From Octopus vulgaris (taxonomy: Eukaryota), in NCBI GenBank assembly GCA_951406725.2, contig OX597820.1, forward strand, positions 96,596,001-96,660,000: a stretch of DNA of 64,000 nt, in the 5' to 3' direction. This document shows, in pieces, positions 40,728 to 50,217 of the stretch (its first letter is position 1; every line of letters begins with the position of its first letter). Below the pieces are notes generated by a model that searched no databases, was not told the DNA's origin, and was given only the letters and a program-made list of their open reading frames with translations. The translations under genes and the position numbers were made by a program.

Positions 40728-43700
40728 TCAGGATTTGGGCACCAAGGCCCATTCGAGCAGAGAGTTATTGTTTGCGGAGACATATCCGGGTGTGGGTGGT
40801 TTGTCCGGGACTGTTTGAAGGAATTTGTCCAATGACTTCTTGAATTTTGTGTGGTCAGTTTCTTTTTTGACGTGTCCTGGTGTAATGTTGAAGAGAGCGG
40901 GTCCAATTGAGGTGAAATAGTTGTGCTGTATTGCCGTTATGTGATGCGATTTAGATTTTTGTTGTGGACGGATGGCACATGGTCCAAGCCTTGGATGTAT
41001 TTTGAAGGTGATGCCAACATCATTCGGACAGTGCTGATGGAATATTTTCCACATCATACAGATAATGTAGCGTTCACGGCGTCGTTGGAGTGAATACAGT
41101 TTCAGCTTCTCTAGTCTACCCCAGTAGTCAAGGTCTGACATGCCATCTATCTTTTTTGTGATTGACCTTTGGGGAGCTTCAATTCTCATAATATTTTGTT
41201 TTGTGTAGGGAGACCACAGTGGACAGCAGTATTCAAGGTGGGGTCGGGCAAAAGTGGAGAAGAGAAGGATAATAGTGTGGGAATCTCTCGACTGGAAGGT
41301 TCTGAGAATCCAGGAACACATTCTGCGGGCCATGTCAACTTTGCTGCTTATATGTGTAGCCCAGCTTATGTTGTTGTCCACTGTTACTCCCAAGTCTCTG
41401 ATGTTGTTGGATGCCATGAGAATTTCTCCAGAAGGAAGAGAGTATGGGAGTTTCAGAGCGTCCTCCCTTCCAAAGTGGATCAGTTCGAATTTGTCTTCGT
41501 TTAGCAACATGTTATTCTTTTCCGCCCATTGGACAACAGCCAGTAGGTCTGACTGAAGGCTTATTCGGTCATCCACGCCATTGATGACCTTCTGGAGCTT
41601 GGAATCATCAGCGAAGGTTCTGATGTTACTGTGTTTGATGGTGTCAGTAATATCATTTATGTAGATGATGAAGAGAAGTGGGCCCAACACAGTGCCTTGT
41701 GGGACACCACTGCTGACTTTGGCTGGGCTGGATTTGACTCCTTCGACTACAACATGTTGGGTTCTGTTAGACAGGAAGCACTTGATCCACTGCAGCAGCT
41801 TTCCAGTGACACCAATATTGGACAGCTTTCTCAGAAGGATCTTATGATCAACCCTGTCAAAGGCCTTGCTGAAATCAAGGTAGATGACATCAGTGTTGGA
41901 ACCCTCTCCCAAGGCTCTCAAAATGTCATCAAAATGATGCAGTAGCTGCGTCAGGCAATCTCTCCCATTACGGAATCCATGCTGGTTGGAGTTCAGCATA
42001 TTATGACTCTCAAGGAAGTGAGTCATACGCGATCTCAGCACTCTCTCAAATACCTTAATGATATGAGAGGTGAGTGAGATTGGACGGTAATTCACGGCAA
42101 GCGATTTGTTTCCTTTTTTGAAAACTGGGACAACAGACTGGGATAGAAGGTCTTCTGGTATATATCCAGCATCCAGTGAGTTCCGCCACAGATTGGCTAG
42201 AGGGGGTGCAAGTTGGTTTTGACACATCTTCAAGACACAAGCAGGGAACCTATCGGGACCTACTGCTGAATTATGCTTCATTTCCTTTATTGCTGCTAAG
42301 ACATCAGGAGCGCCAAAGGTTATGTCCGATAAAGTGTATTGGGGAGTAACATCACTGATACAGCCCAGATCAGTCATATCAGGATTGCTGAAAACAGAGC
42401 AATATTGTTTCTGCAATATCTCTCCCATGGTTTTGGCATTGTCTTGAAGAGTACCATTTTCATCAATCAGAGGGCCAACAGTAGAACCAGTGACTCTGTG
42501 TTTTTTTGCAAATGAAAAGAACACTTTGGGATTGAGTTTGATCTTCTCAATGGCCCAGGCCTCTTCAGCTCTTCGCTGACTATTGATGATAGACATCATG
42601 TTGTTTTGGAGTTTATGTTTTTTAATCTCTAGCGACGAGATGGCAGTCAGGTTGGTGTGTTGCTGTTGACAGTATTTCAGCTTGTTGATTTTTTTGTTAA
42701 TTCTTTTAATTTTCCTGATGAGAGATTTTCTATTTCTAGGGATTCGACACTTAGATTTGTTTGCAGATCTTAATGGGGTGTGTTTTGCACATATGTTCGT
42801 AATGGTGTCTACAAATGACTGCCAGGACTTTTTGATGTTAGTGGGTGTGTATGTGTGCGTGAAGGACCAATCGACTTGTGCAAGATCATTATTGATCGCT
42901 TCCCAGTTTGCATTGTGGAAATCCATAGTGTCAAATGGATGAACAGGAGGGATGACATTTGTTTTGCATTTTGGCCAGTGAAATCTCAGATCACAGAGAA
43001 CCATGTCATGATCGGAGAGTAGGGTTTTCTCCACTGCAATATTGTGGATAGTATCAGTGTGATTGCTGAAAATTAAGTCTAAGACGTTTTTATGACATCT
43101 CGTTGGTTCGAGTACCAGTTGGGACAGGAAGAAATCATCCATGAAGTCAAGAAGCGATTCCACTGCCTCCCTGTCAGGGGTTGAGAGAGAAGAACCTGGC
43201 GGCAGACTGTTTGTAGACCAGTCAACCCCGGGAAGGTTGAAGTCTCCCATCATTAAAATGTTGTCAGGTTGACACTGCTGAATGAAACACTTTATGTTGT
43301 TGAGGCATTCCTTGAAGCATGGTAGGGGCGTTTGGGGTGGTCTGTAGAGCCCAACTACTGTTAAGTTGTTGGTTTGACTGAATACAGCGACTGCTTCGCA
43401 GTATCCATTGGAAAATATGTTCATGGCTTCTGTTGAGAATGAATCATGAACATAAATGGCAGTCCCACCCTTTCTTCTGCCAGCACGATCAGCACGAATG
43501 GTTTTGAAATTTTTAACTTTCACCTCGGCTTCCAAGTGAAGGTTACTAAGATGGGTTTCAGTGAGGACGAAGAAAGGGATGTGGTTTGGATGGGCCTCGA
43601 CCCAGTCCTCCAGGAATCTTATCTTCCATTTTTGTGTATTGGTGGAAGGGCTGATGCCTTGGGCATTAAGCAAAAATGTTGAGGCGAGAGTGGATGGTTT

Positions 43701-43745
43701 TAATTGTTTTGTTGATTTGTTTATTTGATTGCTTTTTAATGGCAT
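40728..43745 (-). CDS. LINE ORF2: apurinic-like endonuclease plus reverse transcriptase (1005 aa)
   Basis: APE motifs LLNAQG, LTETHL, RADR..GGTAIY, LYRPP, MGDFN, LDLIFSN, SDH. RT motifs YRPISL, QHGFR, YLDFSKAFD, GVPQGTVLGP, FADD, DLGV. CR1/L2-type RPHLEYC..WSP. Confidence 0.95.
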   Translation of the reverse strand: MPLKSNQINKSTKQLKPSTLASTFLLNAQGISPSTNTQKWKIRFLEDWVEAHPNHIPFFVLTETHLSNLHLEAEVKVKNFKTIRADRAGRRKGGTAIYVHDSFSTEAMNIFSNGYCEAVAVFSQTNNLTVVGLYRPPQTPLPCFKECLNNIKCFIQQCQPDNILMMGDFNLPGVDWSTNSLPPGSSLSTPDREAVESLLDFMDDFFLSQLVLEPTRCHKNVLDLIFSNHTDTIHNIAVEKTLLSDHDMVLCDLRFHWPKCKTNVIPPVHPFDTMDFHNANWEAINNDLAQVDWSFTHTYTPTNIKKSWQSFVDTITNICAKHTPLRSANKSKCRIPRNRKSLIRKIKRINKKINKLKYCQQQHTNLTAISSLEIKKHKLQNNMMSIINSQRRAEEAWAIEKIKLNPKVFFSFAKKHRVTGSTVGPLIDENGTLQDNAKTMGEILQKQYCSVFSNPDMTDLGCISDVTPQYTLSDITFGAPDVLAAIKEMKHNSAVGPDRFPACVLKMCQNQLAPPLANLWRNSLDAGYIPEDLLSQSVVPVFKKGNKSLAVNYRPISLTSHIIKVFERVLRSRMTHFLESHNMLNSNQHGFRNGRDCLTQLLHHFDDILRALGEGSNTDVIYLDFSKAFDRVDHKILLRKLSNIGVTGKLLQWIKCFLSNRTQHVVVEGVKSSPAKVSSGVPQGTVLGPLLFIIYINDITDTIKHSNIRTFADDSKLQKVINGVDDRISLQSDLLAVVQWAEKNNMLLNEDKFELIHFGREDALKLPYSLPSGEILMASNNIRDLGVTVDNNISWATHISSKVDMARRMCSWILRTFQSRDSHTIILLFSTFARPHLEYCCPLWSPYTKQNIMRIEAPQRSITKKIDGMSDLDYWGRLEKLKLYSLQRRRERYIICMMWKIFHQHCPNDVGITFKIHPRLGPCAIRPQQKSKSHHITAIQHNYFTSIGPALFNITPGHVKKETDHTKFKKSLDKFLQTVPDKPPTPGYVSANNNSLLEWALVPKS

Positions 43746-44010
43746 GTGCAGTGGGGTAATAGTGGTGGATGGTGGTGGGTGATAGCTCGGATGATTTTTT
43801 CCAGTTCTTTTGCTAGATTCATTATAGCTAAAAAAGAGGAAGAAGAGGTGGTTTCCTGTCTAGGGAACTGTAGGTGACTGTGGTTGTGGTTATTTTTATA
43901 TGAGTGGTTATTTCTATATGAGTCGTAGGTTTTTTTGCTTTTATTTTTATTGTCGTAGGTTTTTTTGCTTTTATTTTTATAGTCGTAGGTTTTTTTGCTT
44001 TTATTTTTAT
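43736..44010 (-). pseudogene. C-terminal remnant of LINE ORF1, overlapping the ORF2 start
   Basis: Open frame (YKNKSKKTYD)n-SYRNNHSYKNNHNHSHLQFPRQETTSSSSFLAIMNLAKELEKIIRAITHHHPPLLPHCTCH*. It ends in ATGCCATTAA, which includes the ORF2 ATG. Confidence 0.55.
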
Positions 44011-44180: not shown

Positions 44181-44576
44181 ATTCACACAATAGAGTTCGC
44201 GTAGAGTGAATTGGCTTCGAAGGAATAGCCAAACGAGGGACATGTAAGTGTGTATGAAGCATGTATGAGAGAGAGAGAGCAGAGAAAGGAGAGATAGAGA
44301 GGGGATAAGAGAAAGACAGAAAACCAGAAAAACAGAATGTCAGGGTAACTTGTCTTACGTGTAGAAATAACATATTAAAGGTGAAACTAAAACATTAGTG
44401 ACACCTACTTTGCTAGTTTGTTGTAAAAGTATATAAGGGACAACAAATGGGAAAGAAACAATAAAATATATACATTTTCCTGCTGTAAAGGAATCTCTAA
44501 GGGAGTGATAGAGATATATTAAGATAGAGGGAGAGAGAGAGAGAGAGTTAGAGAGGAAATGGTATTTTCATTGTAA

Positions 44577-44994
44577 GGCGGCGAGCTGGCAGTAACATTA
44601 GCACGCTGGGCGAAATGCTTAGCAGTATTCGTCTGCCGTTACGTTGTGAGTTCAAATTCCGCCGAGGTCGACTTTGCCTTTCATCCTTTCGGGATCGATA
44701 AATTAAGTACCAGTTACGCACTGGGGTCGATGTAATCGACTTAATACCTATGTCTGTCCTTGTTTGTCCCCTCTATGTTTAGCCCCTTGTGGGTAATAAA
44801 GAAATGGGTATTTCGTCTGCCGCTACGTTCTGAGTTCAAATTCCGCCAAGGTCGACTTTGCCTTTCATCCTTTTGGGGTCGATTAAATAAGTACCAGTTA
44901 CGCACTGGGGTCGATATAATCGACTTAATCCGTTTGTCTGTCCTTGTTTGTCCTCTCTGTGTTTAGCTAGCCCCTTGTGGGTAGTAAAGAAATG
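44577..44994 (+). mobile_element. SINE family A, two units, TSD ggtattttcat
   Basis: TSD at 44561-44571 and 44995-45005. Confidence 0.9.
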
Positions 44995-45120: not shown

Positions 45121-45126
<6 letters not shown>

Positions 45127-45307
45127 AAAGAGCTTCTACAGGACTAGAACTGTTTCATTCAAAAGAAATCATCAGGCAGCTTCCTGATGATTTCTTTTGA
45201 ATGAAACAGTTCTAGTCCTGTAGAACTCCTTCTATAAAATAAATTAATTTACTCTGCTATGTATTGAGTACCTTATTTACTGTGGTTAACCCCGACTCAA
45301 CTCGGGA

Positions 45308-45395: not shown

Positions 45396-45545
45396 TATAT
45401 ATTAGAAGAAATGAGGTAATCAGAAGATCGGATGGTTCATGTTTACAGATATTTATTTATATATTACATTTTTTACATATATATATCATATCATTCAGAT
45501 CATTAGCGCTTTCTCCCATTCTAGTGGGGTTTTCAAATCAAAATA
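45396..45545. repeat. Left arm of the inverted-repeat host element of the Hero insertion
   Basis: 45396-45485 is the reverse complement of 49371-49460. Confidence 0.85.
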
Positions 45546-45638
45546 ATTCTCTCCTGATGACCCCATACACTTGCTAGCTTCCGATATACGGAGCTTTTAA
45601 CTGGTAGCACTTGCATGTGCAAGTTGTTTGCAAGATAT
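45546..45638 (+). repeat. 5' terminal direct repeat (93 bp)
   Basis: Base-for-base identical to 49282-49374. Confidence 0.97.
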
Positions 45639-45664
45639 CTAAGACCTTGTGGTAGGTAACCACT

Positions 45665-45764
45665 GACAAACCGGAAAGACGGTTAGGCATCTTGGAAAGA
45701 CAAGAGGACTGCTCGGAAAGACCAGCGGACAATAGGAAAGACTATCGACACCAGGAAAGACTGG
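45665..45764 (+). ncRNA. Array of five hairpins with invariant GAAAGA loop in the 5' UTR
   Basis: aaccg/cggtt, tcttg/caaga, tgctcg/ccagcg, atag/ctat and ccag/ctgg, each closing GAAAGA. Confidence 0.8.
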
Positions 45765-45906
45765 CGGAGGCTACGGACTTACGATCCTCGCCTCTGTATT
45801 TTATTGTAACAGACATAACAGGAAAAGACAGCCCCATGATTGACCGAGAGGGGGAGTCGAGAATCAATCAAACCCAGTCAGCACGGAAACGACCTTTGAA
45901 ACGAGC

Positions 45907-48786
45907 ATGATTATTCATTCGAACAGCGGACGAAATGCAAACAACTTTGGATGCAAGCTGTGCTATAGAACCTTTGCAACTGAGAGAGGCTTGAAGATAC
46001 ATCAGGGAAAGACTTGTGAGAAGAGGACAGAGCAGTGTGGATCGTCAGATCGTAAAACACGTGGCAAATCATCCCCGGACTCAAACCACAGCGGATCGAT
46101 AAATGCTACAGCACAGAACTCTTCACGTGAAGAAACTACAAGTCATGAAACTGGTGCATCGGATAATACTCAGAGGAAACCGAGGGTTTTGTGGCCTGCT
46201 GCTAATGAGAAAGTGAAATATAAAGTGTTTGAAAACAAGGTTTGTCGGACTCTTTATAAAATGACAGGCTCTACAGTGGAAAAACTGGGAAAATTATCAA
46301 GCTCAATATACGATGTAGCAAGAGATTTATTTGGAATAAAAGAGAATATCCGACTAGAGAAAGGAAAGTGTGGACCAAGCAGGAGGATCAGAAAAATGCA
46401 GCAGTTGAGGAAGGAAAAGTCCGACTTAAGAAAGAGATGGAGATGTGCTGCACTAGATGAGAAACCTGGCCTTGCGTTGCTGTATAACGATTTGAAGAGG
46501 AAATGTCGTTATGTGCAACGACATATTCGCCGATATGAGCGTCGAAAAGAAAGTAAAAGGACTCGAGGGCAGTTTCTGAAGGACCCGTACGGGTTTACTA
46601 AGAAGCTGTTCACTGAGCCGAAGAGTGGTACTTTATCGTGCACTAAAGAAGAATTGGATGCTCATATCAAGGAAACCTACAGCGATCCGCACCGTAATCA
46701 GCCGCTGCCATCTCTACATGGGCTAAATCATCTCTCAGGACCTGATATCGAATTCCAGATTGGGGACATCAGGGAGAGAGAGGTGAATGACTTCGTAAGA
46801 AAAGCTAGAGCGAAGAGTGCCCCAGGAGGTGATGGCGTCTCATATAAAGTCTACAAATACTGCAATCGTCTGCGAAAGAAGCTCTTCGTCCTAATCCGAC
46901 AACTGTGGCGCGAGGAGACTATAGTAGAGGATTGGTGTAAGGCAGAAGGTATATACCTGCCGAAAGAGGCCAATGCAAAGACCATAAAACAGTTTAGGCC
47001 GATATCCTTATTGAATGTGGAAGGCAAGATCTTTATGGGAATTCTGTCGAGGAGAACAGTGACATATTTACAGAGTAACGGATATGTTGATGAATCTGTT
47101 CAAAAGGCCGGAATCCCCGGGATCCCTGGATGCGTTGAACACTGTTTTTCGATTTGGAAAGCGATTCAGGATGCCAAACAGAACAAGAAAAGTCTGAACG
47201 TGGTATGGCTCGACCTAGCTAACGCGTATGGTTCAGTGCCACACAAATTACTAATAACAGCCATGGACCACTTCCACATTCCTGACAAAGTGATCAAAAT
47301 AATGAGGATGTACTATGAAAGTTTCGAAATGAGGTTTACAACTGGAAGTTTTACAACAAATTGGCACCGATTGGAGGTTGGCATTGCTGCTGGCTGTACA
47401 ATATCTGTCACGTGGTTTATCTTAGTCATGGAGTTGATTTTGAAAGGTGTAGATTTTTCGGAACAAATCGCCCATGTACAATCGCCTAAGAAAGCCTTCA
47501 TGGATGACGTGACACTTCTAGCTACAGATAAACAAATCATGCAGAATGCCCTTTTGAGATTAGACGAACGTGTAAGGTGGTCAAGGATGCGATTTAGAGC
47601 AAAAACGTCGCGTAGTCTGACATTTGTTAAGGGAGTGCAGAAAGAATTTAAATTTCGAATATCGGAAGAAAGCATTCCAACAGTCAAGGAAGAGCCCGTC
47701 AAGAGCTTGGGACGAGTATATGCTGGAACATTGTCAGATAGAAGTCGTGGGATTGAAATTATGAAACAGGCCGAGGCTGGGTTATCAGCGATTGATGTTT
47801 CGAAGTTACCAGGTAAATATAAAATTTGGTGCTTGCAGTTCGGACTGTACCCGCGACTTGCGTGGCCACTTTTAATATACGAAGTAGCATTGTCACAAGT
47901 TGAAAAGATCGAACAAAAATGTAATGTGTTCATTAGAAAGTGGCTAGGTCTACCTCGTATGTTGAACAGCTCAGCTCTTTATCGTAAAAGAGGTTCGTTG
48001 CAGTTACCAATAGCATCAATAGTCGAAATATATAAGTTGGGGAAGATACGGACGGTCATGATGCTGAGAGAATCGAAGGATATGGAAATCAGGCGTAACC
48101 CACCAGAGGTGAAAACAGCCAGGAAGTGGAAAGCAGAAGCAGAAACTGACAACATCTTGTCTTCTCTTACACACAGAGATATGGTGGGAGCAACGCAGAA
48201 CCATCGGAAAGGATTTGGTTTTGGCGCGGATCAGTTCAGACCGTTTGCAAGCATGATGCCGTGTGAACGCAGATCTGTTGTTAGCAACAGCGTCAAAACA
48301 AGAGAAGCAGAGAGAAGAGAGCTTCATTTGATCCGATGTGTTCATCAAGGTCAGATGACGAGATGGGAAGAACATGTTGTTGAGAGGAAGATAAGTTGGG
48401 ATGAGATGTGGAAGTGGACAACATCTCGGCTGAGTTTCCTGATTCGTTCATCTTATGATGTTTTGCCATCACCTACGAATCTAGTAAGATGGAACGTCTT
48501 AGAGAATGACGTCTGCAAATGTGGAAAAGTCGGTACACTAAAACATATTCTTTCCAACTGTTCGTTAGCATTGAACAGGTACACATGGAGGCACAACTTG
48601 GTCCTTAAGGTTATCTTCAATGCTATAAAGAATCAAATTCATCTCAACAACACTGAGGAAAAATCGTTAAAAGTACCATCAAGAGAGTTCATTACCTTCG
48701 TGCGACCAGGTCAGCAGATCCGTTTCAAGAAGAAGACCAAGAAACTTCCTGAGAAAATGAAAAGTGGAACGACTATTGGGAGGTAA
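45907..48786 (+). CDS. Hero-like polyprotein: N-terminal C2HC zinc finger, RT, CCHC knuckle (frameshifted before the RLE)
   Basis: CKLC..GLKIHQGKTC, SAPGGDG, FRPISLLN, LDLANAYGS, FMDD, CKCGKVGTLKHILSNC..YTWRHNLV. Confidence 0.92.
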   Translation: MIIHSNSGRNANNFGCKLCYRTFATERGLKIHQGKTCEKRTEQCGSSDRKTRGKSSPDSNHSGSINATAQNSSREETTSHETGASDNTQRKPRVLWPAANEKVKYKVFENKVCRTLYKMTGSTVEKLGKLSSSIYDVARDLFGIKENIRLEKGKCGPSRRIRKMQQLRKEKSDLRKRWRCAALDEKPGLALLYNDLKRKCRYVQRHIRRYERRKESKRTRGQFLKDPYGFTKKLFTEPKSGTLSCTKEELDAHIKETYSDPHRNQPLPSLHGLNHLSGPDIEFQIGDIREREVNDFVRKARAKSAPGGDGVSYKVYKYCNRLRKKLFVLIRQLWREETIVEDWCKAEGIYLPKEANAKTIKQFRPISLLNVEGKIFMGILSRRTVTYLQSNGYVDESVQKAGIPGIPGCVEHCFSIWKAIQDAKQNKKSLNVVWLDLANAYGSVPHKLLITAMDHFHIPDKVIKIMRMYYESFEMRFTTGSFTTNWHRLEVGIAAGCTISVTWFILVMELILKGVDFSEQIAHVQSPKKAFMDDVTLLATDKQIMQNALLRLDERVRWSRMRFRAKTSRSLTFVKGVQKEFKFRISEESIPTVKEEPVKSLGRVYAGTLSDRSRGIEIMKQAEAGLSAIDVSKLPGKYKIWCLQFGLYPRLAWPLLIYEVALSQVEKIEQKCNVFIRKWLGLPRMLNSSALYRKRGSLQLPIASIVEIYKLGKIRTVMMLRESKDMEIRRNPPEVKTARKWKAEAETDNILSSLTHRDMVGATQNHRKGFGFGADQFRPFASMMPCERRSVVSNSVKTREAERRELHLIRCVHQGQMTRWEEHVVERKISWDEMWKWTTSRLSFLIRSSYDVLPSPTNLVRWNVLENDVCKCGKVGTLKHILSNCSLALNRYTWRHNLVLKVIFNAIKNQIHLNNTEEKSLKVPSREFITFVRPGQQIRFKKKTKKLPEKMKSGTTIGR

Positions 48787-49181
48787 CTGCAGATTTACCT
48801 GGGTGCCAGGTTTTCTTTCCCATCCCAGTTTCGAAAAAACCAGATATTTTGATGTGGTGTGAAAGAAAGAAAGTTTTAAATATAGTCGAGCTAACGGTTC
48901 CTCACGAAGATAATATGGACGCCGCTCGAGCTCGAAAATTAAACCGTTATGAAAACCTCCTCGAGGAATATGAAGACGCAGGCTGGAAAGCGGAACATTT
49001 TCCTATCGAAGTCGGATGTAGAGGGTTTGTAGGACACAGCGTGAGACGACTGTTGTTATCGTTAGGCCTAACTCATCGTAAAGTCAATACCACCATGACT
49101 GATATCCAATCTACAGTGGAGAAGGCTAGCCACTGGATTTGGTTAAAAAGAGACGATGAGCGATGGCTAGAAGTATATTGA
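48753..49181 (+). CDS. Restriction-like endonuclease (PD-(D/E)xK) domain, continuation of the Hero ORF in the -1 frame
   Basis: ENEKWNDYWEVTADLPG..KKPDILMW..IVELTVPHE..PIEVGCRGF..EKASHWIWLKR. The frame is open from 48753. Confidence 0.9.
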   Translation, partial: ENEKWNDYWEVTADLPGCQVFFPIPVSKKPDILMWCERKKVLNIVELTVPHEDNMDAARARKLNRYENLLEEYEDAGWKAEHFPIEVGCRGFVGHSVRRLLLSLGLTHRKVNTTMTDIQSTVEKASHWIWLKRDDERWLEVY

Positions 49182-49201: not shown

Positions 49202-49313
49202 CTAGCAAGCGGGGCCTCATATCAGTGAGGGGGGCCGGTGCGCATTGATGCCGTCGAGAGGTAGGCCCCGAAACGGCGCGCATTCTCTCCTGATGACCCC
49301 ATACACTTGCTAG
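49202..49313 (+). ncRNA. Candidate permuted/pseudoknotted hammerhead ribozyme in the 3' UTR
   Basis: GCCGT-C-GAGAG (49250-60), GGCCCC-GAAACGGC (49264-77), CTCTC-CTGATGA (49285-96), with stem II partner GGGGCC (49231-36). Confidence 0.6.
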
Positions 49314-49374
49314 CTTCCGATATACGGAGCTTTTAACTGGTAGCACTTGCATGTGCAAGTTGTTTGCAAGATAT
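49282..49374 (+). repeat. 3' terminal direct repeat (93 bp)
   Basis: Identical to 45546-45638. Confidence 0.97.
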
Positions 49375-49448
49375 ATATGTAAAAAATGTAATATATAAAT
49401 AAATATCTGTAAATATGAACCATCCGATCTTCTGATTACCTCATCTTC

Positions 49449-49943: not shown

Positions 49944-50015
49944 TGTATTATAATATTATAATAATATAATATAATAATATTCACTATTGTAATAACATAT
50001 TATATAGACTGGTTA

Positions 50016-50217
50016 AGGCGACGAGCTGGCAGAATCGTTAGAACGCCGGGTAAAATGTCTAGTGGCATTTTGTCCGTCTTTTCGTTCTGAGTTCAAACTC
50101 TGCGAAGGTCCTTTCACCTTTTGGGGTCGACAGAATAAGTACCAGTTGAGCACTGGGGTCGATGTAATTGACTTACCCTTCCCAAAAATTGCTGGCCTTG
50201 TGCCAAAATTTGAAATC
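50016..50217 (+). mobile_element. SINE family A
   Basis: Consensus match. Confidence 0.8.

Follow-up and report, generated by a model that had tools for sequence, protein, structure and literature searches.

What does a row of short hairpins with similar loops and freely varying stems do in the leader of a retrotransposon RNA? The question is raised by a 64,000-nucleotide stretch of Octopus vulgaris DNA (contig OX597820.1; hereafter the window, whose numbering is used throughout), in which five such hairpins lie just upstream of the ORF of a Hero-like element. The original prediction described them as a multivalent protein-binding platform and proposed three uses: assembly with the element's protein, translation initiation on an uncapped, ribozyme-cleaved RNA, and docking to the 3′ structure. 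How RLE-type retrotransposons translate uncapped RNA without a methionine start is an open question in the available sections of two papers (PMC13580325, PMC3894237), and another describes how factorless IRESs arose as unknown in its available part (PMC12221177).

Results

Five Hairpins Precede the ORF

The GAAAGA loops begin at 45674, 45695, 45716, 45736, and 45755, each is closed by a G-C pair, and the stems comprise 5, 5, 6 (with one C·C mismatch beside the closing pair), 4, and 4 bp, all as originally described. On the plus strand, unit 1 (45664–45684) has a UGAC linker and an AACCG/CGGUU stem, unit 2 (45686–45705) a GGCA linker and a UCUUG/CAAGA stem, unit 3 (45706–45727) a GGAC linker and the mismatched UGCUCG/CCAGCG stem, unit 4 (45728–45745) a GACA linker and an AUAG/CUAU stem, and unit 5 (45747–45764) a GACA linker and a CCAG/CUGG stem. 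Ahead of them on the same strand is a 5-bp leader hairpin with a different loop (45649–45663), which is equivalent in position to a CUGG-n-CCAG hairpin of relatives and which we count as part of the array structure. The variant GGAAAAGAC at 45821 is not a sixth unit, since its stem has only 1 bp and it lies within coding sequence. A single GAAAGA loop on a 4-bp stem also occurs in the zinc-finger coding region (46007–46012), likely by chance.

The 8-mer made up of loop and closing pair occurs nine times in the window versus 1.5 expected, a count matched by none of 100 shuffles. Nineteen of 20 stem cells are Watson-Crick, which among 120 permutations is reached by the true arm assignment alone. 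The array region folds well on the plus strand (z = −3.92; 0 of 200 shuffles as good), and because the minus strand folds equally well (z = −4.68; 0 of 200), folding energy alone does not assign the strand. No Rfam family matched the array.

We also considered, and rejected, the idea that the array is coding sequence: its peptides occur in all three frames within single proteins. Across protein records, array-type peptides number 24 in 469 upstream residues versus 28 in 15,811 downstream residues, and gene calls of further homologues that extend into the UTR display the motif in three frames.

The Array Is Carried by a Single-ORF Retrotransposon

The host is an autonomous RLE-type non-LTR retrotransposon of about 3.7–3.8 kb with one ORF (45806–49181, plus strand), encoding an N-terminal zinc finger, a reverse transcriptase (RT; PF00078), a CCHC knuckle, and a PD-(D/E)xK-type C terminus. 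The RT region corresponds to RVT_1, the CCHC knuckle and PD..ELT motifs were read from the sequence, and Pfam gave no family for the C-terminal piece. The solved structures closest to the protein are those of R2 proteins (E about 1e-38); among named proteins, one from Aplysia is nearest (59%). The window element has the layout of the HERO clade (zinc finger, RT, CCHC, and restriction-like endonuclease in a single ORF), and the name Hero, used in the original prediction, agrees with what we take to be the features of that clade; our tree comprised unnamed relatives only. The element's flanks are AT-rich and (TA)n, which fits the non-rDNA insertion expected of HERO elements, and there is no rRNA match within the 64-kb window. 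As described in the available portion of PMC4640811, HERO elements have no rDNA target and insert nonspecifically or into microsatellites.

Relative to other copies, the window ORF is frameshifted twice, near 45849 and 48753, and this copy is therefore likely dead. In read contigs from four runs (three organism labels), 3′ fragments are numerous whereas copies long enough to include the array are much scarcer, a pattern of steep 5′ truncation; one contig bridges the terminal repeat and the array.

Other repeats surround the element. A 74-bp inverted repeat flanks it (45411–45484 and 49371–49444); the left arm lies in another high-copy repeat (about 45411–45549) that joins the element via short microhomology, and the right arm is an inverted partial copy of this left-hand repeat, probably made at insertion. 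Farther out are a 110-bp MITE-like palindrome with 95% arms, beside a (TA)n run (45123–45235), an intact 1043-aa APE-RT ORF from another LINE clade (40728–43859, minus strand), and a SINE-like repeat, presumably typical of octopus genomes, which occurs both in tandem and as scattered copies (44576–44990 and 50010–50200).

The Array Recurs in Related Families and Its Stems Covary

Relatives were the best 80 of 173 loci from a metagenome scan. Arrays of three to five units of the form UGAC-N-stem-GAAAGA-stem are present in 22 Hero-like retrotransposon loci (85 units), whose RTs are 42–59% identical to that of the window, and in every counted locus the array lies between the ORF end or ribozyme and the ORF start. 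A position-blind scan of the best 80 of 173 loci found 17 clusters in sense and 1 in antisense orientation, versus 0–1 in 20 Markov simulations, and a covariance model built from the Hero loci added further arrays. Twenty-three loci cover the zinc finger plus 330 nt or more of upstream sequence; the array is present in 16 of them, 4 are 5′-truncated in or after the region, 2 from one family lack it, and in 1 it is degenerate. L010 and L014 are without a full array, that of L018 is degenerate, and the divergent L035/L043 clade has one or two units. Loop positions in the 85 units were assigned by pattern and partly by eye; the unit count and loop-codon totals leave out L062, a near-copy of L034 whose start codon no longer pairs, and the counts leave out a second, reverse array in L030.

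At stem positions 1–4, 311 of 340 cells are Watson-Crick, 12 are G-U, and 2 are A-C. When arms were swapped among all units, among units of the same index, or within arrays (20,000 trials each), the maxima were 206, 228, and 260. In a 12-row alignment, 92% of cells pair (slid controls, 28–47%), and both sides have changed in 21 of 34 pairs (0 of 500 shuffles). The covariation between families and the excess of G-U over A-C support the earlier proposal of selection on RNA structure, and the presence of two to five units per array supports a multivalent design.

Two details required revision. The GAAAGA loop, described as invariant, is so in the window's own family but varies across families, where the 85 units comprise GAAAGA (28), GAGAGA (10), GAACAGA (6), GAAAGT (5), and 21 rarer forms, with the between-family pattern GA-N1-2-AG-N. 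The linker, described as GACA-like, has the consensus UGAC (60 of 85 units). Units are spaced 18–23 nt apart, with a mode of 21. The module, its covarying stems, and their positions, like the loop-codon pairing potential described below, come directly from comparison of these sequences.

A Predicted Anticodon-like Loop Can Pair with an In-Frame Codon

In Hero loci, a hairpin with a 7-nt loop lies 14–28 nt downstream of the array. After it comes a linker rich in A and C, in many cases preceded by a short tetraloop hairpin, and the linker leads to an in-frame codon some nine codons ahead of a conserved peptide. The corresponding window hairpin (45763–45792, plus strand) has the predicted anticodon-like loop CUUACGA (45778–45784), with the triplet UAC, and its predicted pseudoknot partner (45804–45808, plus strand) consists of the in-frame Val codon GUA (45806–45808) and the two preceding bases. 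This codon sits at the conserved start of the protein, an A/V-T dipeptide; an in-frame ATG at 45836, 10 codons past GUA, is not conserved in close homologues. In the window copy, the form with the 7-nt loop is outside 2.5 kcal of the best fold, and a competing fold is preferred.

Bases 3–5 of the loop, which was located together with its codon partly by eye, are complementary to the in-frame start codon in 20 of 22 arrays: AGC/GCU in 11, GGC/GCU in 5, AGU/ACU in 2, and GGU/ACU and UAC/GUA in 1 each. Loop and codon covary, with Ala, Thr, and Val versions changing together, and the agreement was equalled in 2 of 100,000 shuffles, or 49 of 100,000 with three related Thr loci collapsed. Matching triplets are found in frame in 28 of 327 cases versus 5 of 654 out of frame. 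Position 33 of the loop is a pyrimidine in all 22 arrays and position 37 a purine in 18. The helix, which involves three codon types, has 3 bp in many loci, is lengthened by two pairs 5′ of the codon in five loci including the window, and fails in L009 and L049. In independent protein records, the G-L-T reading of the loop goes with a Val start residue in three of three cases and the G-L-A reading with an Ala start in four of four, two of the latter having been read by eye one residue past the regex match.

From array to zinc finger, there is no in-frame Met in L027, L030, L039, and L051, and the first Met of L009 is inside the zinc finger; other loci do have a Met early in the ORF, and AUG directly follows the paired codon in L024 and L069. 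In three copies (L020, L032, and L058), the 5′ truncation falls where the anticodon-like hairpin begins at its base, immediately downstream of the array.

A Hammerhead-like Motif and Terminal Repeats Suggest How the RNA Is Formed

The element begins with a 93-bp direct repeat (45546–45638, plus strand) identical to its 3′ end (49282–49374, plus strand); the end of the 3′ repeat, which is the element's 3′ junction, corresponds to 10 nt ahead of the leader hairpin. A hammerhead-like motif of permuted and pseudoknotted order spans 49211–49296 (plus strand), with a predicted cut after GUC at 49255. As the 5′ repeat begins 27 nt past the predicted cut site, the 5′ ribozyme is incomplete. The strands are ordered IIa..IIIa-UH-Ia-IIb-GAAA-IIIb..Ib-CUGAUGA; the core (CUGANGA, GAAA, and UH) is invariant or nearly so in 23 regions, and 22 of 27 regions selected by core alone have three stems of 4 bp or longer, versus 11 of 2300 shuffles. 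The motif does not have the strand order of type I, II, or III hammerheads with A9 joined to stem II, the 5′ strand of stem II coming from upstream of stem III, and no Rfam hammerhead model matched it. It lies 72–121 nt upstream of the array in 17 loci and recurs after the ORF. Extra helices adjoin stems I and II in the window, L005, L063, L027, L037, and others.

In four families (the window, L005/L021, L019/L020, and L049/L060/L066), copies have 3′ junctions 27–37 nt ahead of the first loop, and in a more distant pair the junction is 17 nt before it. The 5′ ends often continue into a second copy of the 3′ end, over 37 bp to about 2 kb. These junctions are on the downstream side of the predicted cut, where a cut RNA that stayed linear could not serve as their template. 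A circular template would explain both the junction position and the terminal repeats. Alternatively, these may have arisen by tandem read-through or by end-to-end template jumping, which is known for the R2 RT.

Both window repeats carry a letter (at 45584 and 49320) that is absent from most other copies, which fits the copying of both from one template. In L017, L024, L037, L039, L045, L051, L062, and L078, the ORF end, ribozyme, array, and ORF start follow one another in head-to-tail or permuted arrangements, some of which may be assembly collapses. Inspection of the window element's 3′ UTR by eye found no complement of the array loop.

The Module Occurs in Phages, tmRNAs, and RNA Viruses

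In viral contigs, patterns fixing the linker, loop, and closing pair alone gave 51 and 36 matches, versus none with a loop-permuted control. Of 47 distinct matches, 43 have at least two stems of 3 bp, and 209 of 252 cells in the distinct units pair, versus at most 101 after swaps. By context, 16 are within 60 nt of an ORF start, 9 at tRNA genes, 1 in tmRNA, and 17 elsewhere, and 4 are stemless. G-U again outnumbers A-C, at 19:7 in viral matches and 37:16 in the genome matches listed, compared with 12:2 in Hero. A three-loop pattern without the linker was too noisy to use, as 25 of 61 matches had at least two stems of 3 bp and the rest were plain tandem repeats.

In four RNA-virus contigs, the array ends a short distance upstream of the AUG that opens a long ORF: 17 nt in L084, 18 nt in L336, 23 nt in L341, and 27 nt in L310. 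L084, in which the ORF is a polyprotein or other long ORF with an RNA helicase, scores 50.3 bits with the Hero-built covariance model versus 48.9 for the window; L336 has a weak picornavirus capsid match, and L310 and L341 are unclassified. More broadly, viral contexts include UTRs of picorna-like, tombus-like, and other RNA viruses: tombus-like contigs (RdRP_3) have several units within a long 5′ region, and two RdRP_4 contigs have units about 20 nt from the contig 3′ end. Viral groups with RdRp and capsid proteins of these types are not known to have capped RNAs. In the tombus-like contigs L318, L323, L331, L339, L342, and L105, the 5′ region with the dispersed units measures about 450 nt and has as many as six or seven of them.

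In phages, the array ends 13–43 nt before a start codon, beside a Shine-Dalgarno-like site, mainly in one gene family (phrog_13908; 8 of 14 proteins). Phage arrays also precede Mu-type transposition genes, tRNA spacers are a further location of the module, and two phage tmRNAs contain it. Near some phage arrays, Rfam models matched only tmRNA, tRNA, and unrelated type II hammerheads; the array itself was unmatched. Two Pseudophaeobacter loci (L151 and L185) have at least five near-identical intergenic units. Loop and closing pair together also match exactly a word of bacterial 23S rRNA (L352, G003), presumably in the A2058 region of domain V, that is not a hairpin there.

Among the GTDB genome matches listed, 83 of 122 lie in tmRNA, mostly of Acidimicrobiia; these units, also among the matches listed, are a median of 91 nt past the tag ORF and belong largely to one tmRNA class. 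Three units lie at the third-pseudoknot region in tmRNAs of Acidimicrobiia and some phages (L146–L267, L099, L131, and L276). This occurrence is no proof of ribosome contact, since PK2 is the sole pseudoknot of E. coli tmRNA described as closely touching the ribosome in the available part of PMC8363625. Contexts outside Hero are thus mixed, and most, though not all, are translation-related. No Hero relatives were found in GTDB genomes or viral contigs, and tblastn found no match to the element RT in L081–L084.

Discussion

In the reading that we prefer, and to which we give an even chance of being right, the array is the ribosome-recruiting part of a cap-independent initiation element on the retrotransposon RNA. 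RNA cleavage, circles, ribosome binding, and the start codon are all predictions in this scheme. Read-through transcripts of long-terminal-repeat or tandem copies would be cut by the hammerhead-like motif into uncapped unit RNAs, which would probably be closed into circles. The three to five hairpins would then attach with avidity to some conserved component of the apparatus for translation, in all likelihood the small ribosomal subunit. The anticodon-like loop would pair with the GCU, ACU, or GUA codon and so set the frame, like PKI of a type 6 IRES; the following codon, mostly ACN, would be decoded first, making AUG unnecessary. Reverse transcription would start 4–10 nt 5′ of the leader hairpin and might exceed one unit length, giving terminal repeats.

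Because the array lies just before the predicted tRNA-like pseudoknot, it likely aids the start of ribosomes on the predicted capless RNA, and we judge ribosome recruitment the most likely role given this adjacency and the mostly translation-related contexts elsewhere. The originally proposed use in initiation on uncapped, ribozyme-cut RNA thus gained support, whereas binding of the element's own protein is disfavored as the reason for the motif. The presence of the module in both bacterial and eukaryotic RNAs calls for a conserved partner or a self-contained fold.

In the strongest competing explanation, which we regard as unlikely, the module would be a stabilizing or structural element that forms a compact fold with its neighbors or binds a general RNA chaperone and so shields uncapped or processed ends from exonucleases, and the anticodon-like pseudoknot would then start translation alone. 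The module is found near phage transcript 5′ ends, in tRNA spacers, at viral 3′ ends, and in tmRNA about 90 nt past the tag ORF, all sites at which stability matters and several of which lack ribosome loading. A two-hairpin block to Xrn1, coremin, is known from plant viruses (described in part of PMC6546385), but the loops of the array are unlike the coremin YGAD and the conserved 10-nt spacer is absent. The tight spacing to starts in four unrelated RNA-virus contigs and in phages, together with the Hero pseudoknot 14–28 nt downstream, suggests a start-site role instead.

It is also conceivable, at a lower probability still, that the array is a binding site for the element's own protein that positions the RT for TPRT at an internal start on circular or tandem RNA. 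Since the 3′ junctions of four families lie 27–37 nt before the first loop, the array flanks the cDNA start on the side not copied first, and R2 proteins bind UTR structures for such positioning, according to the available sections of PMC13580325. However, the leader hairpin or the sequence preceding it may determine the junction, and the module occurs in RNAs without such an RT (L081–L084, and collections of viral and prokaryotic sequences without a Hero relative), which makes a site purely for the element's protein unlikely. RT positioning is compatible with ribosome recruitment, and the candidate roles can overlap.

Binding of a non-ribosomal host protein, either an export receptor (as in CTE/NXF1) or an initiation factor (as in BTE/eIF4G), is improbable. 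NXF1 and eIF4G are, to our knowledge, absent from bacteria, where the module is common. CTEs have an AAGACA loop and are more active in tandem copies (part of PMC4174252), but AAGACA occurs in only 6 of 85 array units. BTE SL-I, which binds eIF4G and consists of a GNRNA loop on a stem of 4 bp (as given in sections of PMC5712577), resembles CCUG-GARAGA-CAGG units, but the BTE 17-nt consensus and cloverleaf are absent. Finally, although spacing of 18–23 nt (mode 21) and equal folding of both strands would suit DNA-level internal-promoter sites phased about two helical turns apart, or functionless leftovers of tandem duplication, this very improbable reading is largely refuted by unit-specific compensatory changes, by the sense-strand bias toward G-U over A-C, and by the presence of the module in RNA viruses and tmRNA.

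A bolder reading, which we offer tentatively and think more doubtful than probable, is that a 20-nt module binding a ribosomal surface conserved between bacteria and eukaryotes has repeatedly entered phages, tmRNA, RNA viruses, and animal retrotransposons. In Hero, the module and tRNA-mRNA mimic together would be the first factorless IRES known from a cellular genome, and the circular RNA bearing it, made by the ribozyme, would also be the template for rolling reverse transcription. A module common to bacterial and eukaryotic RNAs would imply that the surface it binds is conserved, and it could be used as a small part for translating circular RNA. The Hero element yields a sharp prediction, which specifies both the codon and its pairing and for which compensatory variants exist in nature. 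In addition, the terminal repeats, hammerhead-like motif, and internal RT start suggest for a LINE-type element a circular-RNA cycle of the kind so far proposed for Penelope-like elements and retrozymes.

Judged from sequence collections, the module is uncatalogued and far wider than the window element. Open-licence PMC and bioRxiv literature contained no description of the array, the tRNA mimic, or a Hero hammerhead, and parts could be covered in Repbase Reports, subscription papers, or the supplements of a survey of 224 RNA motifs (PMC5737381).

Comparison with Known Systems

Because the motif tests for the type 6 IRES (PKII/PKIII), CTE, BTE, and coremin all came out negative, we assign the array to none of these classes. 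The originally proposed analogy to boxB and CsrB holds for design alone. Lambda boxB (mentioned in PMC5712577) and CsrB/Rsm-type RNAs likewise repeat short hairpins in which the purine loop is constant and the stem sequence is free; the array has a different loop and linker, has no Rfam match, and belongs to a module that is cis-acting in bacterial and eukaryotic mRNAs. The BTE, a 3′ CITE, likewise has a short stem and purine-rich loop, occurs in uncapped RNA viruses, and is modular and exchangeable (described in part of PMC5712577), whereas the array has loops of 6–7 nt rather than GNRNA, a UGAC linker, multiple units, and bacterial occurrences.

Self-cleaving motifs also free uncapped retrotransposon RNA in R2, RTE, and L1Tc, which have HDV-like ribozymes at their 5′ ends and whose translation is thought to be cap independent and to start at non-AUG codons (available text of PMC6765202). 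The Hero motif instead resembles a hammerhead and is located within the 3′ UTR and terminal repeat, apart from the proposed initiation element. Closer in this respect are the Penelope-like and retrozyme hammerheads, with cores in terminal or tandem repeats and circularizable unit RNAs that give rise to tandem cDNA (sections of PMC7229834); the Hero element differs in being autonomous and RLE type, and its hammerhead order is permuted, pseudoknotted, and missed by Rfam.

By analogy, the array may work like a type 6 IRES, in which the PKI hairpin loop pairs with an in-frame triplet to mimic an anticodon-codon interaction (available parts of PMC4132737, PMC12221177, and PMC10275262). Like those of CrPV, IAPV, HalV, and NediV, the Hero region occupies about 150–180 nt before the ORF, and its 3′ hairpin loop can pair with an in-frame triplet (20 of 22 arrays, weakly in the window copy); that domain includes an additional hairpin and A/C-rich linker in many Hero loci, and Ala or Thr codons lie at the start, where no AUG is conserved, although some Hero loci have an early Met. 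The Hero array, however, lacks PKII/PKIII, SLIV, SLV, and L1.1, has no IRES match in Rfam, and has in their place three to five free hairpins with one loop type, its consensus fold being a row of free hairpins. GCU, ACU, or GUA is the paired codon in Hero, whereas GCU is the first codon decoded beside PKI in known type 6 IRESs. The Hero array also differs in sitting in a cellular retrotransposon, a location for which the available part of PMC3894237 raises an IRES only as a possibility.
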